From Octopus vulgaris (lineage: Eukaryota): DNA of 64,000 bases. Made by a program: the position numbers and the translations under genes. The stretch covers positions 74,338,001-74,402,000 of the forward strand of contig OX597826.1 in assembly GCA_951406725.2 (NCBI GenBank), given 5' to 3'. The notes below the pieces were generated by a model. The model ran no database searches. It worked only from the letters and a program-made list of their open reading frames with translations, and was not told the DNA's origin. Positions 1 through 51,134 of the stretch are shown here, piece by piece (within the stretch, counting starts at the first letter, position 1; the number at the start of each line of letters is the position of its first letter).

Positions 1-585
1 GATTGGTTGTAATTGAATATAAGAATCACGTGGCCATAGAAGTCAACTGCTCTGAAGGCGCGAACATTTCTTCTATATCTAGTGAAGGAGAAAATATCTT
101 TGGTCAATTGCTTCGAATATTGCATCCTTTCTAACCAGATTATAAATTCACATTCATACCAATTAGTTTTTATGCTCTTCGCTATGTTGATAGATACGGA
201 AAGCTAATGTTTATAGATAAAGAAACTGATCCTCTAACACTCGATTTACAAATATAATCTGTAAGCGGAACATAAAAAATATGTTAGATTTTTGAAAGTT
301 TAGCACGTAACACAGACCCTTTTGTTCTGAATTGCAGCGTTTGAAGTTTGCTTCTTTATTAGAAACCTTCATATAGAAACACTTCAAATAACTAGAAAAG
401 AAACATACATGCATGCATGCGTACACGAAAATCCGACTGATGCCTAAATCTTGCAGAAGATCTTTAATTCTGGATTAGAAGACAGCACTTTGTGTACGGG
501 TGAAATTTTTGGAGTAAAACCACAAGAATACACACATACACATATGTACAAAATATACATAAAATAATTCTTTCAAAGTTTAGTA

Positions 586-6253: not shown

Positions 6254-6351
<98 letters not shown>

Positions 6352-6439
6352 AACCAGCTTGGAGAAGAAGAAGAAACGAAACGAAACGAAACGAAACGAA
6401 TCGAATCGAATCGACGCGAGGGCGCTCAGTCATACAATA

Positions 6440-6682
6440 GTGCAAAGGAATTTTATTTAATTCTTTCGCAGGAAGGACTTGTTCGACGAATCGTGTTCTG
6501 TCCTCACCTTCGAAACACGCTGGAGTTGAACTAGGGACAGCTGATGAAGGGGATTTTTCCTTGTGTAGTTGTCTTGTACTCTGTTTTTTCGTTGTTAAAA
6601 AAATGGTCCGTTCCATGCTTGTTTTTACTTTTTCGTTTCTCGTTGAGTTCTACGTCTATTTGTGGTGTCCTGTACTCACGTA
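6440..6682 (+). mobile_element. 5'-truncated copy of the TA-embedded repeat carrying the permuted hammerhead
   Basis: Homologous to about 14245-14490 and 38965-39203; ends in a (TA)-rich tract. Confidence 0.75.
6492..6552 (+). ncRNA. Putative hammerhead ribozyme with non-canonical strand order C-B-A (copy 1, all core nucleotides intact)
   Basis: CGTG-TT-CTGTCCT / CAC / CTTC-GAAA-CACG / linker / GGGACAG-CTGATGA-AGGGG; stem III CGTG:CACG, stem I CTGTCCT:GGGACAG, weak stem II. Confidence 0.6.
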
Positions 6683-6791
6683 TATATATTTATATATGCA
6701 TGTATATATACATGTAGATATAGGTACGTACATATATGTTTGTATGTATGCATATATTTTATTTATTACACACACACACACACACACACAC

Positions 6792-13796: not shown

Positions 13797-13845
<49 letters not shown>

Positions 13846-13855
13846 TTATATTATT

Positions 13856-14494
13856 GAACGCCACGCATCTTCTTCCAAGTAAGTTTTATCTTAATAATTC
13901 TGATGCGCTCTCTATACGATCTTTTTACTCTTTCGTTTTTCTCTCTTTCTATCTCTTATTCTTTTACCTTCTCTTCTCCCACTATTCTATCCCATTACTT
14001 GTCACTCTCTCTCCCTCACTCCTCTTTCTTTGCTCACGTGGCCCTCGTGACCATCGGCCATTTTTCTTTCTTCTAATTCGTGTTTCTTTCTCTCCTTTGT
14101 AGCTGGAACAAGGAAGACGCGTTTTTGTTTGTCTCCTGTCCAAGCTTGATTAATGCGTTCGCCATCACAACCTCGTTTAGCTTAACAGCCCTTCCTGTTT
14201 GTTTTAACCGTCCTGTTTGTGTTACCGATTTTGACCCTCCACAAAATCCCAAATTTTATTTAGTTTGCTTTGCGGGAACAACTGTTTTATCGAAAGCGCA
14301 TATTGTTGTTAAATGTTCGAAATACGAGACTAGCAAAAACAGCCAACAACTGATGAAGGCTCATTCTTTATGTTGTTTGTCTTGTTTTCCATTTGTGTCT
14401 TTTGTTGTTCGAAAAAATAGTTCATATTCCTTGTACACGTACTTCGTATTTTTTGTTGCACATGTTTCGTGACGTCCTGCGTCCACATATTCAT

Positions 14495-14541
<47 letters not shown>

Positions 14542-14650
14542 CGTATAGATATAAGTATGTACATATACGTATGTAAATATATATATATATATATTATTTA
14601 TGTTATTACACAATAGAACACCACGCATCCTCTTCCAAGTATGTTTTATC
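13856..14650 (+). mobile_element. TA-embedded non-coding repeat unit plus the start of a second head-to-tail unit (period 760 bp)
   Basis: GAAC(G/A)CCACGCATC(T/C)TCTTCCAAGTA(A/T)GTTTTATC at 13856 and 14616; homologous to 38545-39203. Confidence 0.75.
14297..14360 (+). ncRNA. Putative C-B-A permuted hammerhead (copy 2)
   Basis: CGCA-TA-TTGTTG / TTAAATG / TTC-GAAA-TACG / 17-nt linker / CAACAA-CTGATGA-AGG; stem I TTGTTG:CAACAA is perfect. Confidence 0.55.
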
Positions 14651-14673
14651 TATATATATACATATATATATAC

Positions 14674-20352: not shown

Positions 20353-20430
20353 ATTACTCTACCTTTGGTATTTGAGTGCTCTTTTTTCTACTTTGTTTCA
20401 CATTTATGTGCTTACTCCGATATATATATA

Positions 20431-20615
20431 TAATCAGCCGAAATTGCGAAGATGATCCGGTTCTTGACTGATGATTGAGGGCTTCGAATGTTCCGTCCGT
20501 GTTTTTTGTGTCGTCTTCTAAATGTTTCACGTTCTTGTCCCAGTTTGTATATTTTTTTACTTTTACATATATACATGGCGGCTACGTACCCACTTTTTGA
20601 CCCTATACGTAAGTA
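20431..20615 (+). mobile_element. TA-embedded repeat with hammerhead strands in B-then-A order, 5'-truncated
   Basis: AGCC-GAAA-TTGCG (20436-20448) precedes TTCTTGA-CTGATGA-TTGA-GGGCT (20461-20483); homologous to 12535-12695. Confidence 0.6.
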
Positions 20616-20618
20616 TAT

Positions 20619-20681
<63 letters not shown>

Positions 20682-21683: not shown

Positions 21684-21766
21684 GACCTACACGTGTTTCC
21701 GCTGCAGCGATTACTCACTGTTGGAAAAGCAACATTGCATTATTGTTAATGCAGCTTCATCAGGTT
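21684..21766 (-). ncRNA. Type-I hammerhead with extended stem II (left-arm copy, one stem I mismatch)
   Basis: Mirror of 22083-22167. Confidence 0.6.
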
Positions 21767-22082
21767 CCGTCCATTTGGTCATCTTCGAAATGAACTGATT
21801 GAAGTAGATTTTTGTTAGAGTTCTGTAGGAGTTGGGGTGGGAGTTGTTATTTATAGGCACGTGCTGCTGACCTCAAATTCACACCAGTCGCTGCTCAAAG
21901 TTAGGGTTTGGTCAAAAATAGGTCATGGTCGAATTTGTGTTTTTGTAAGGTTCTTTGTCGGACAGCAACTGGTGTGAATTTGAGGTCAGTAGTACATGCC
22001 TATAAATAACAACCCCCACCTCCTACAGAACACTAACAAAATCTACTTCCATCAGCTCACTTTGGAGATGACCAAATGGACA

Positions 22083-22167
22083 GACCCTGATGAAGCTGCA
22101 CCGACAATAATGCAAGGTTGCATTTTCCAACAGTGAGTAGTCGCTGCAGCGGAAACACGTGTAGGTC
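22083..22167 (+). ncRNA. Type-I hammerhead ribozyme, canonical core, extended stem II
   Basis: GACC-CTGATGA-A-GCTGCA-(44 nt)-TGCAGC-G-GAAA-CACGTG-TA-GGTC; palindromic stem III. Confidence 0.75.
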
Positions 22168-23304: not shown

Positions 23305-23435
23305 ATAATAATAATAATAATAACATCGAAAAATACCTTAGGAATCAGAACCCAGCTTCGAAATTTCCCCAAGACTCCTGATGAAGGCTGGAGAGTATAT
23401 CCGCCGAAACGTTGTGATAGCAACAAACAAGATAT
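23157..23435 (+). mobile_element. tRNA-headed SINE-like element with internal (TAC)n(TAA)n and a degenerate hammerhead in its tail
   Basis: Head GGGCATATGGCGTAGTGGTTAAGAGCGCGGGCTACTAATCCCAAGATTCCGATTTCGATTCC; tail CTGATGA-A-GGCTGGA...TCCGCC-GAAA-CG-TT at 23378-23413. Confidence 0.6.
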
Positions 23436-36112: not shown

Positions 36113-37613
36113 CTATAAAGCAAAGCTTCTGAACTGGAAAGCCATGCCTTATATTTAACATACTCAGACGTATTCTTTGAATCATCTTATAATATTGGTT
36201 TCAAATTTTGGCACAAAGCCAGTCATTTTTGGGGAAGGGGACTAGTTGATTACATCGACTCCAGTACTCAACTGGTACTTATTTTATTGACCCCCAAAAC
36301 GAAAAAGTTGACCTCGGTGGAATTTGAATTCAGAACATAAAGACGGACGAAATACCACTAAACATTGTGCCCGAACTGCTAACGATTCTGGCAGCTTACT
36401 GCCTTCAGAACTTATCTTATTAATAAATCAATATACATAACTGGATGAGTATAATTAATATCTGTAACCTAGAATATAATAAATGTACAGAGTGTTTCAT
36501 ATGTGCATACCTCTTATGACCTTGGTGAAGGCAGGTTAACACTAAACGACCTCCACACACACTGTGTATATAGATCAGATCTGTATGTTGAGATAAGCAA
36601 AGACTTCCAGCTGGATATGAAACTAAGTTAATTGAATTAAAAGTTACAAACAGCAACAACTTTACAGCTACGTCCTACTTCCCTAAGCTGATAGGAATGT
36701 CAGTTTTTATCAATCAACCTCTTTTACTCTAGTCTCTTCCTATAAAATTGACCCCGTTGTAAAATTTACGAATTTGTTTCCGTTGTCGTAGCTAGGAAGT
36801 CTTTTTTTTTTAAATGTGAGAACAAAATAGAATCTATACTATAATAAACTATGATGAATGAAAGAGATTAATATGGTATAGGAATAACTTGTATTAAAAT
36901 GTTCTTCTGAAGAGCGATCTCATATGAAAAAAAGAGAATAAATAAATAAAAAGGCAATTCGTTCTGAATTGTACCATTCTGTAAACTGGAAGTTGGATTC
37001 TTGGGTTAATCTTACGGAGGAACACGTGCCTCGTCTAAAGCTTATCTCAATTGTAACCGTGATGTTATTTAGGTTTTATAATATTTAGACAAAAATATCT
37101 TTCTTAATGAAGTGGTTTTTTTTTATAAAATAAGTCCATGGGAAGCTGCGGAGTTCGTAAGTTAGATAAATGAATATAAGAAAATGTGAAATGAGTGGCC
37201 AGTTAAACCAAATTTGTATCCATTTCACACAAACACAATGGCCCTGAACATGGAAGTCCGTATATCCACATACGCACATATGATAGATAGATAGAGAGAT
37301 AGAGAGAGAGAGAGAGGGGGGGATAAAGAAAAGAGAGAAGAGGAGGGGAAAGTAAAAGAAGAGAGGAAAGAGAGAGAAGAGGAGGGGAAAGTAAAAGAAG
37401 AGAGGGAAGAGAGAGAAGAGTGAGAAGTGAACGCTTAAATTTATTTATAGATATACCCAGTGTGATTCTGTTGAAATGAAACAATATTTCTTTATTTGGA
37501 ACAGTGTATCTCGAAGCAAACAAACCAATAAATAATAGGGTGTAAACATTGGGTTACTGAAATAAAGTTACCTGTGAGAAACAATGCTTCATTCAATTCA
37601 CAAATTGGCATAA

Positions 37614-38045
37614 AGGCGGCGAGCTGGCAGAAAGGTTAGCAGGCCGGGCGAAATGCGTAGCCGTATATCGTCTGCCGTTACGTTCTGAGTTCCAAATTCT
37701 GCTGAGGTCGACTTTGCCTTTCATCCTTTCGGGGGTAGATAAATTAAGTACCAGTTACGCACTGGGGTCCATGTAATCGACTTAATCCATTTGTCTGTCC
37801 TTGTTTGTCCCCTCTATGTTTAGCCCCTTGTGGGTAGTAAAGAAATAGGTATTTCGTCTGCCGCTACGTTCTGAGTTCCAAATTCCGCCGAGGTCGACTT
37901 TGCCTTTCATTCTTTCGGGGTCGATTAAATAAATACCAGTTATGCACTGGGGTCGATATAATCGACTTAATCCGTTTTTCTGTTATTGTTTGTCCCCTCT
38001 GTGTTTAGCCCCTTGTGGGTAGTAAAGAAATAGGTATTTCGTCTG
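37614..38045 (+). mobile_element. Family-A SINE with two internal ~180-bp tandem units
   Basis: One head, then TATTTCGTCTG...AAAGAAATAGG repeated. Confidence 0.9.
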
Positions 38046-38344: not shown

Positions 38345-39203
38345 CATCATATATGTTGCATGTCTCGTTTCTCTGTATGTTTTTTTTTTCGTTGTTCGAA
38401 AAAAGTTCGTTTTCTATGTTTTTGCTTTTATGTTTTCGTATCTCATTGTGTTCAACGGTTTTTGGATGTCCTGTACCTATATATGCATGTACATATATGT
38501 ATGTATATATGCATATATTTATATATTGTTTATATTATTATATGATCGAACGCCAAGCATCATTTTCCAAGTAAGTTTTATCTTAATAATTACGATGCGC
38601 ACACTTACTCTATCTCTACTATCTCTTCTCTGTTCTGTCTCTGTCTCTCTCTTGTTCTTCATCCTTTCTGGTTTTCTCTCCCACCCTTCCTTATTCTTCT
38701 CCCCTCCCCTTTACCGTTCCCTCTCTGTCATTCTTCCTCCTTGACTCTCTCGTCGCTGACACGTGACGAAAGTGAATCTCTCTTTCTGCCCATTTCCTTC
38801 CTAAAGACAGCACGTGCTTATACCTGTCTCCTCTCATAAGCTGATCTTCCTAGCGTTCATAATAATGTTTCTATTATCTTGGCTCAACAGCCCTCACCGT
38901 TTGTTTTTACTGTCTTGTTCTCACTGTCCTGTTCTTGTTACCACTTTCACCCTCCGCAAAAAATCCCAAATTTTATTTAATTTGCTTTGCGGGAAGGACT
39001 GTTTCAAGGAGGTCGCGTATTGTCCTTGCCTTCGAACGCGGAGTAGATGAAACAGGGACAACTGATGAAGGGGAATATTCTTTATGTTGCATTCTCGTTT
39101 CTCTGTTTATTTTTTCGTTGTTCGAAAAAAGTTCGTTTTCTATGTTTTTTTTAATGTTTTCGTTTCTCATTGAGTTCAACGTTTTTTTTATGTCCTGTAC
39201 CCA
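38345..39203 (+). mobile_element. TA-embedded repeat: 3' end of one unit followed head-to-tail by a full unit (period 724 bp)
   Basis: TGTCCTGTACC at 38467 and 39191; unit start GAACGCCAAGCATC at about 38548; homologous to 13856-14490. Confidence 0.8.
39014..39073 (+). ncRNA. Putative C-B-A permuted hammerhead (copy 3; one A missing from GAAA)
   Basis: CGCG-TA-TTGTCCT / TG / CCTTC-GAA-CGCG / linker / GGGACAA-CTGATGA-AGGGG. Confidence 0.55.
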
Positions 39204-39294
39204 TATATATATATATATACATGTATATATACATATATATGTAGGTATGTACATATATGTATGCATATAGTCATATATTCATATATTATTTATA

Positions 39295-49765: not shown

Positions 49766-49795
49766 AGAGAGAGTAACAATAGACTGTTTCATTGA

Positions 49796-50392
49796 GGCGG
49801 CGAGCTGGCAGAAACGTTAGCGCGCCGGGCGAAATGCTTTGTGGTATTTCGTCTGTCTTTACGTTCTGAGTTCAAATTCCGCTGAGGTCGACTTTGCCTT
49901 TCATCCTTTCGGGGTCGATAAATTAAGTACCAGTTATGCACTGGGTCGATCTAATCGACTTAATCCGTTTGTCTGTCCTTGTTTGTCCTCTCTGTGTTTA
50001 GCCCGTTCTGGGTAGTAAAGAAATAGGTATTTCGTCTGCCGCTACGTTCTGAGTTCAAATTCCGCTGAGGTCGACTTTGCTTTTCATCTTTTCGGGGTCG
50101 ATAAATTAAGTACCAGTCACGCACTGCGGTCGATGCAATCGACTTAATCCGTTTTCTGTCCTTGTTTGTCTTCTCTGTGCTTAGCCCCTTGTGGGTAGTA
50201 AAGAAATAGGTAGTTCGTCTGCCGTTACGTTCTGGATTCAAATTCCGCTGAGGTCGACTTTTCCTTTCATCCTTTCGGGGTCGATAAATTAAGTACCAGT
50301 TATGCACTGGAGTCGATGTAATCGACTTAGTCCCTTTATCTGTCCTTCTTTGTCCCCTCTATGTTTATCCCCTTGTGGGCAATAAAGAAATA
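49796..50392 (+). mobile_element. Family-A SINE with three internal ~183-bp tandem units
   Basis: One head and three near-identical cores. Confidence 0.9.
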
Positions 50393-51134
50393 ATTATATA
50401 TATAAGTACATGTATGTTAATATATGCATAAATACATTTATACACTCACACACACACACATAAATGCGTGAATGTATCACATCATTCTTCGCCTTTGAAA
50501 CGTTGATACTTTGACGGTTGCTGGCTTCCATATCGTCTGGGCTTCTTTCGTTTCTGCACATACCCACAGTGTTACTGTCGTAAAGAATTTCTGTTGAGTA
50601 AAGATCTTCTGATAACCTTCAACACCATCCTCATCCTTTGTTGTTGATATGCAATAACAATATTCTAAAAATACATTTCATTGAAATAATTTCCATAACA
50701 TTTATAAAGTTGCATGATTGTTATTATTCAAACATCGCTCAGACATTCCATGTTTATAAAGGGAAATTCTTATTTTTGTTTATCAGTTGCATTGTCCTGC
50801 AAGTTTTAATCTGTATTCCCACGCAATTATTTCTATGGTGTCATCAACATTCTCTTATCTAAAAATGTGAATGTAATTCTATATTCATATTTATTTTCTC
50901 CTAATTTTTTATCGTTATTTAATCTTATCTTATTTCGAAACAACTGTAGAGCAAATGACTATGGCTTTATTTTATAAGTCTAATATTTTAGCAAAGAAAT
51001 TCTGCTTTCGCTAACTCATAGCTCCTCAGAAACAAAATATTTTGCGTCTATAAACGCAGTTGCATTAATTTTAGAATATTTCTGTAAAATTTCAGCGAGG
51101 TGAACGAATTTTATTCACAAAAGTCAAACTACGT

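Follow-up and report, generated by a model that had tools for sequence, protein, structure and literature searches.

In the stretch of Octopus vulgaris DNA analysed here (the window, 64,000 nucleotides), two loci at about 14 kb and 38 kb hold non-coding repeats of different families that are ~66 to 71% alike, and two further relatives lie at 6348-6771 and ~20430-20620. The features, with positions counted from the first letter of the window, are listed one per line.

13798..14651, + strand: family B copy with a single 760-bp unit and a ~90-bp repeated end (TA-rich stretch and tail), with TA runs on either side
13856..13891, + strand: first copy of the tail, the "unit start" of the original prediction
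14276..14288, + strand: stem II 5' strand (14276-14280, G14276 in the place of G10.1) and P4 5' strand (14282-14288), with 5/5 and 7/7 Watson-Crick pairs that covary across families
14297..14308, + strand: block S, made up of the stem III 3' strand, U-A, the predicted cut at 14302/14303 and the stem I 3' strand
14314..14326, + strand: block G, made up of the stem II 3' strand, GAAA (14319-14322) and the stem III 5' strand; stem III pairs 4/5, with one mismatch
14336..14356, + strand: P4 3' strand (14336-14342), stem I 5' strand (14344-14349) and CUGAUGA (14350-14356)
14480..14615, + strand: the unit's TA-rich stretch, where the first 3'-end cluster falls
14616..14651, + strand: tail, with the second 3'-end cluster and then (TA)n
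38352..39290, + strand: family A copy, ~1.3 units (724-bp period), motif at 38993-39068, GAAA box short of one A
6348..6771, + strand: family C copy, 5'-truncated forward part at 6441-6771, intact motif at 6472-6547
6348-6445, within 6348..6771: inverted tail of the family C copy, at its 5' side
20430..20620 (right end approximate), + strand: family F fragment, its start lying 3' of the predicted cut by a few bases; GAAA at 20440, CTGATGA at 20468

The two periods on which the original prediction was built were recovered: a 14-nt start motif is found at 13856 and again at 14616 (760 bp), and the end GTCCTG at 38468 and again at 39192 (724 bp). At two mismatches or fewer, the start motif has three sites in the window (13856, 14616, and 38548), all within these two loci. 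Position 13856 had been taken for the start of the unit and is instead the first base of its 3' tail. The repeated stretch of the 14-kb locus is ~13798-13891 / ~14556-14651 (39 bp at 89.7% identity outside the TA run), and that of the 38-kb locus is 38352-38518 / 39083-39238 (85.6% identity). The TA-rich microsatellite placed inside the period is present in both periods and turned out to be conserved within the unit; most copies end in it. Nor is there a credible ORF, as had been noted: stop-to-stop frames over both loci reach at most 172 aa, and none of four tested frames gave a Pfam match at the curated cut-off. The proposed head-to-tail arrangement holds only in part, since the periods are real and arrays exist elsewhere with one hammerhead per non-coding tandem unit, but the window loci span ~1.1 to 1.3 units with one ribozyme motif each; neither is a full dimer, because each has a single CTGANGA box. 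The 5' splice-site consensus GTAAGT closes the tail in families A, B, and F (38571-38576 in A, 13879-13884 in B, ~20612 in F); in A and B it precedes a long pyrimidine tract, an arrangement that recalls the pLTR intron of Penelope, and it is absent from family C.

The ribozyme motif was originally read as a permuted hammerhead of order C-B-A. Its strands run stem II 5' strand, P4, cut site, GAAA, P4, CUGAUGA. The strand preceding GAAA pairs with a segment 20 to 25 nt upstream of U16.1, and the upstream stem II strand is followed by one strand of a fourth helix, P4, whose partners are the bases preceding the stem I 5' strand. As the 5' strand of stem II is supplied from the upstream side of the cut, the chain has its opening between A9 and G10.1; with the stem II partner upstream and P4 added, the motif would be the SGC/CSG cycle, circularly permuted and opened at A9/G10.1. 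The permutation is thereby supported, while a simple reordering of three intact boxes is not, the stem II partner lying upstream of the cut. The cut site itself is predicted by analogy and supported by the pile-up of 5' ends in families A and C described below.

The motif belongs to a set of related non-coding families with units of ~720 to 830 bp. DNA searches covered the 2.8-Gb genome, and the best 40 candidates were scored for each of types A, B, and C, from first-look totals of 4,727 candidates for family A, 3,648 for family B, and 1,995 for family C. The best 40 of the 3,648 family B candidates are 89 to 92% identical (self excluded), the best genomic relatives of the family C window copy reach 96 to 98%, and the family F anchor has 1,177 exact matches; families C and F include young copies. 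The pattern YCGAAA-N18..34-CTGATGA has 12,942 matches, partly outside these families, versus 974 for the reversed control. Nine families were set by spacer sequence alone, of which ~7 are independent because A/D and C/C3 are mutually close. The four-helix fold also occurs in further, more divergent families, each found once or twice (L007:836-934, L165, L166, L175, and L193).

Insertion ends were mapped at the 80 best-scoring loci picked for covering the core, short copies being left out. Most copies are 5'-truncated, and the 5' ends of these 80 loci are scattered from -100 to -1011 relative to CUGAUGA (a ~900-nt spread) rather than fixed on both sides, as the LTRs or TIRs of LTR retrozymes, LTR elements, and DNA transposons would have it. 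The 3' ends, by comparison with the same box, fall into two clusters: +200..229 in 23/30 and +264..268 in 4/30 loci of family A; +217..225 in 8/20 and +299 in 10/20 of family C; and +241..256 in 14/30 and +306..310 in 3/30 of family B, where the other 13/30 end earlier, in the TA-rich stretch. The resulting tail is ~40 nt long in A, ~55 in B, and ~75 in C, the latter two exceeding the usual 30 to 40. TA or related repeats follow most 3' ends, and, judged on the 3' flanks, insertion is into (TA)n, apparently without a clear TSD. Inverted 5'-truncated arms occur at 7 or more of the 80 loci, the window's 6348-6445 included. At several loci the junction of an inverted arm with the forward copy is at the predicted cut or close to it (L224/L317, L266/L406, L276, L284, and L308), and such fold-back junctions suggest template switching at the cut end.

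Copies at unit spacing are a minority. Among the first 100 listed anchor matches of each family, same-strand neighbours at this spacing were counted by eye for 26 in F, 4 in C, and 0 in A; those of family F comprise 9 dimers, one trimer, and one five-mer, so that tandem organisation, although uncommon, reaches five units. The five-motif array (~4.3 units) has spacings of 720 to 726, a first unit that lies in a TA run and lacks its 5' part, and 98.7 to 100% identity between neighbouring units. Over 10 family F arrays, identity is 98.0% within an array (n = 21 pairs) versus 90.8% between arrays (n = 45), a between-array value for family F only, that of family C being excluded because rows L414 and L421 were mis-anchored. 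The five-mer fits a single insertion from circular or multimeric RNA, and local expansion is also possible.

Excerpts of the published work on PLEs list pLTRs, inverted 5' arms, and a tail among the marks of these elements (PMC8557442) and trace the tail to two internal RT start sites (PMC11167929), which our two mapped 3'-end clusters match. Partial tandems, the two-cluster 3' ends, and the arrays all back the earlier proposal of a non-autonomous retroelement with pseudo-LTR architecture, and we hold with high confidence that the element is of the PLE type.

If the ribozyme is active, the cut should leave a trace in the insertions. Among 90 loci anchored at CUGAUGA, 31 had 5' ends at -6..+37 from the predicted cut. 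A second set of 120 copies was anchored ~146 nt 3' of the site, which controls for the general fall-off by truncation; it consists of the first 70 of 878 family C and the first 50 of 1,003 family A matches, overlaps partially with the earlier loci, and was binned after the result of the first set was known. Ends in -3..+36 account for 40 of the 98 copies at risk, versus 6/104 in the preceding 40 nt and 4/58 in the following 40 nt (Fisher p 1e-9 and 2e-6), and 2 of these last 4 are fold-back junctions whose forward part, by eye, starts at the site. On a finer scale, 16 ends lie in 0..9, 13 in 10..19, and 3 in -10..-1. End calls carry an error from microhomology, and some represent internal deletions or fold-back junctions; hazards rise again further upstream (0.11-0.30), in part through subfamily differences from the references. 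Processing at the predicted site, as originally proposed, is indirectly backed in families A and C, and the pile-up is likely a footprint of cleavage in vivo, to which RT stalling in the pseudoknot could contribute. The remaining 58 of the 98 copies read through the site, and therefore uncut or re-ligated RNA also serves as template.

These observations can be arranged into a cycle. The ribozyme would cut a read-through transcript once per unit, and a PLE protein would nick (TA)n DNA and prime reverse transcription inside the RNA, at two sites ~265 and 310 to 350 nt 3' of the cut that would give copies without and with the tail. On cut RNA, RT would run off at the newly made 5' end or slightly short of it (~40% of the copies reaching there); on uncut or re-ligated RNA it would read through, which would account for pseudo-LTRs, multimers, and copies of greater length. 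Within an RNA of unit length, stems II, III, and P4 may clamp the 3' end on the core and so favour re-ligation to a circle, an outcome to which we give an even chance. Taken as a whole, we consider it rather likely that the repeat, with its high copy number, PLE-like ends, and predicted permuted hammerhead, derives from the Naiad clade and is copied in trans by a PLE RT/GIY-YIG protein.

The strongest competing account keeps the active ribozyme and dispenses with circles, the templates being cut linear RNAs together with uncut read-through transcripts of partial tandems, and the multimers arising from multimeric donors or local expansion. In the excerpts of PMC11167929, PAc, the one PLE tested in vitro, uses uncleaved RNA as its main template and HHR cleavage is dispensable, so circles are not required for partial tandems, and the role of the ribozyme step in PLE transposition is itself debatable. 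Arrays are likewise a minority of copies, and circles of metazoan retrozymes required a protein ligase in vitro (PMC7229834). Yet the 4.3-unit array, with its near-identical units, truncated first unit, and TA flanks, resembles one insertion, for which a circle is a simpler source than scarce long donors, and the 58/98 copies that read through the site also count against this account, which we put a little short of even.

The Naiad derivation of the element, circular or linear, draws on the fold. Naiads favour (TA)n, cephalopods hold remnants of them only, and no canonical HHR is reported for them in the excerpts of Craig et al. (2021, PMC8557442), which give just "HHR_core" and "HHR_half_core" marks. 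By eye, the end of the Octopus Naiad consensus in that work has the same fold. A 23-nt piece of the motif of Naiad_Obim/Ovul has 538 genome matches (control 0), one of these loci with an RT fragment upstream, and 13 of 20 loci fetched around RT hits, some of them picked for nearness to motif matches, carry the motif 3' of RT remnants and in the same orientation. Two loci (L111 and L187) have an EN fragment 5' of RT. The originally suggested PLE link is thereby both supported and narrowed to the Naiad clade. The open-core form was also recognised by eye in 10 supplement excerpts of non-nematode Naiad consensuses (PMC8557442), one with a 2-bp stem I, which by file order are a ctenophore, a hydrozoan, three corals, two in the cubozoan/rotifer part, an arthropod, and two octopuses; type CSG was recognised at 7 places in the nematode part. 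These counts come from 60 of the 62 CTGATGA places in the supplement, from 10/23, 10/43, and 10/25 places of three variants, and from 30 of 47 GAAAC places, in a file where motifs broken by line ends are missed and most names follow from file order.

Families A to C resemble the Naiad remnants only in the fold and, as to sequence, in a short CATCCWTTT-like stretch close to the 3' end. An ORF with N-terminal GIY-YIG, CxC, and RT, as in Naiads, is not found in the element; EN before RT occurs in separate loci of the motif-bearing family. Because the element is without an ORF, we file it as Naiad-type non-autonomous and not as a Naiad, and that it is Naiad-related we regard as highly probable. 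One Naiad remnant is adjoined by a 478-aa open frame that by eye is LTR-retrotransposon integrase-like (L088:37-1470).

No intact Naiad partner was found among 152 and 20 matches or at 15 loci with mid-identity RT hits, and none of the Naiad frames recovered is intact (at most 292 aa), even though young copies exist in families C and F. The partner searches scored the best 150 of 2,725 and the best 150 of 6,859 candidates, so a young Naiad may have been missed. A young C-terminal-EN (Neptune-like) PLE, by comparison, has near-identical open frames of 683 to 753 aa with RT, Cys-linker, and GIY-YIG at 4/4 fetched loci. Its loci (L092-L095, e.g. G000:C18:77.00 Mb) also have an upstream frame of 340 to 370 aa, a pLTR, and TA-run flanks. 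It is possible, then, that the fold is Naiad-derived and that recent mobilisation was by another PLE clade, such as this family in TA runs, whose frames are open where those of Naiads are broken; we consider this unlikely, as families A to C have no sequence in common with its 3' UTR or tail, which also disqualifies it as a parent by sequence, as the adjoining family C copy is a separate insertion after a truncation, and as a young Naiad may have escaped the scored sample. The fetched loci show no DNA similarity of families A to C to either Naiad or Neptune-like ends. We infer the mobilising protein solely from fold, tail, and target, because no intact Naiad was found and the Neptune-like element has no shared end sequence, and a Naiad protein is the mobiliser we somewhat favour.

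Whether the fold is a working ribozyme was approached through its pairing. The four helices covary over the nine families: with majority strands, pairing is 100% in stems I to III and 94% in P4, versus 40 to 52% when strands are swapped between families, and the upstream stem II partner makes 5/5 pairs in all nine, four of its positions showing 2 to 4 pair types. A MAFFT alignment of 15 motifs shifted the helices out of register, and the pairs were accordingly tallied from anchors. Among 30 unselected pattern matches, 14 reach 8/10 or more for stems I and III (shuffles 1.25%), and among these 14 an upstream stem II partner with at least 4 pairs is present in 11 (shuffles 31%) and a downstream one in 1 (shuffles 5%); stems I and III jointly with the upstream stem II are found in 11/30 versus 0.3% of shuffles. 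In the 14-kb copy, all pairs of stems I, II, and P4 are intact, and stem II differs on both sides from the family B majority. Single-strand folding does not favour the fold (z -0.2 to +1.5 for 5/5; ViennaRNA, which cannot model pseudoknots). By the general kink-turn rule, a standard kink-turn beside stem III would fit 23/23 F, 15/19 Naiad-type, 23/45 C, 0/13 B, and 0/4 A copies; base positions are given in the usual hammerhead numbering. No Rfam hammerhead appeared among the 150 listed of 287 window matches or in two focused scans. The order is S-G-C with an upstream stem II strand, and not that of a type I hammerhead; a canonical type I reading with the downstream GAAA was rejected by eye, stem I being unable to form.

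We weigh two readings in which this pairing does not amount to an open-core ribozyme. The element might carry a conserved non-catalytic RNP signal, a fossil hammerhead, with 5' ends clustering through RT stalling in the pseudoknot. Many ends do lie at +9 to +23, within helix strands, but ends are scarce at +37 to +43, the first part of the fold that RT encounters, and frequent at 0 to +8, by which point RT has already copied the pairing partners, and CUGANGA, GAAA, U-H with H never G, U16.1-A15.1, and G10.1-C11.1 are kept in 9/9 families, all of which makes a fossil improbable. An ordinary type-SGC hammerhead, with stem II formed by the bases right after CUGAUGA and the upstream strand acting as a switch or tertiary contact, is the least probable reading: families A to E do have a 3- to 4-bp G.U-rich alternative there (G-C, G.U, G.U/G-C after one extra A, an extra base between 9 and 10.1 being typical of PLE hammerheads; PMC4209133), but no stem II 5' strand follows CUGANGA directly, the downstream pairing is just 1 to 2 bp in families F, G, and the Naiad type against 5/5 upstream in all nine, and the 14 unselected copies favour the upstream partner by 11 to 1. 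The open-core permuted hammerhead is thus the reading we prefer, a candidate catalyst that is likely a self-cutting RNA of unusual strand order as judged from conservation and pairing, and it is probable that it cuts in vivo.

Published systems offer several points of comparison, taken here from excerpts of the respective papers. Animal non-LTR retrozymes (PMC7229834; Li, Clavereau & Pollet 2026, 10.64898/2026.07.22.740005) are likewise non-coding, low in GC, and head-to-tail with one hammerhead per unit, occur as dispersed monomers, dimers, and multimers, and have been proposed to be non-autonomous PLE derivatives, all as here; since their PLE origin has already been argued in both of these sources, where retrozymes are defined by type I ribozymes, the general idea of the original prediction is already in print. 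Retrozymes carry a type I hammerhead and give RNAs of 170 to 400 nt (PMC7229834), whereas the motif here is non-circularly permuted, in units of 720 to 830 bp that are mostly 5'-truncated, although consensus lengths reach 972 bp among the retrozymes of Li et al. (10.64898/2026.07.22.740005). Circles are known for retrozymes, whereas the element here is known from genomic copies alone. With Naiads (PMC8557442) it shares pLTRs or partial tandems, inverted 5' arms, the tail, the (TA)n preference, and the four-helix 3' fold, and it differs in having no ORF and no detectable homology outside the fold. Non-autonomous Chlamys PLEs such as MRC1 (PMC8557442) belong to the N-terminal-EN clade and have pLTRs and multicopy head-to-tail insertions, as here, but share 3'-end sequence with autonomous partners, of which none was found here.

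The SGC, CSG, and GCS hammerheads of Eckert et al. (2023, PMC10085705) have the same cyclic strand order, a similarly short link from the stem I 3' to the stem II 3' strand, and an extra helix tying stems I and II. The chain here opens at A9/G10.1, a break that in the excerpts of that paper is assumed not to occur and lies outside its six orders; single extra bases between 9 and 10.1 are known (PMC4209133, PMC3705267), and insertions known between A9 and G10.1 are of 1 to 2 nt only. SGC and CSG came from metatranscriptomes and metagenomes, CSG from two sequences (PMC10085705), whereas here there are thousands of copies in an animal genome. In the full-text literature searched, which leaves most subscription journals outside its coverage, permuted hammerheads in Naiads, in octopus, or with an A9/G10.1 opening are undescribed.

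These comparisons allow a broader and more tentative proposal, which we hold with somewhat less than even confidence: Naiads may carry hammerheads (CSG in nematodes; A9/G10.1-opened in cnidarians, molluscs, and others) and may have spawned at least nine protein-free parasite families of 0.7 to 0.8 kb that self-cut in vivo, circularise via clamped ends, and copy by rolling reverse transcription, with the 5' ends of thousands of insertions recording the cut. If true, this would fill the stated gap that Naiads "lack canonical HHR", take hammerhead wiring beyond the six orders deemed possible, place in animal genomes the non-circular permutations so far tied to environmental RNA, and carry retrozymes past type I ribozymes, and the pile-up of insertion ends would be a genomic read-out of ribozyme activity in PLE transposition.

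The window holds other repeats besides. A canonical-order (type I) PLE-type hammerhead, CTGATGA-A-GGC...GCC-GAAAC, lies at 23330-23420 in another abundant repeat family. An abundant SINE-like repeat of ~183 bp, both tandem and dispersed, occurs on both strands at 1614-2500, 37600-38045, 49790-50400, and ~15 other places. Finally, an inverted pair of a CCTGATGAAGCTGCA-bearing repeat spans 21690-22110, outside the studied families, with CTGATGA at 22087 (+) and 21763 (-).
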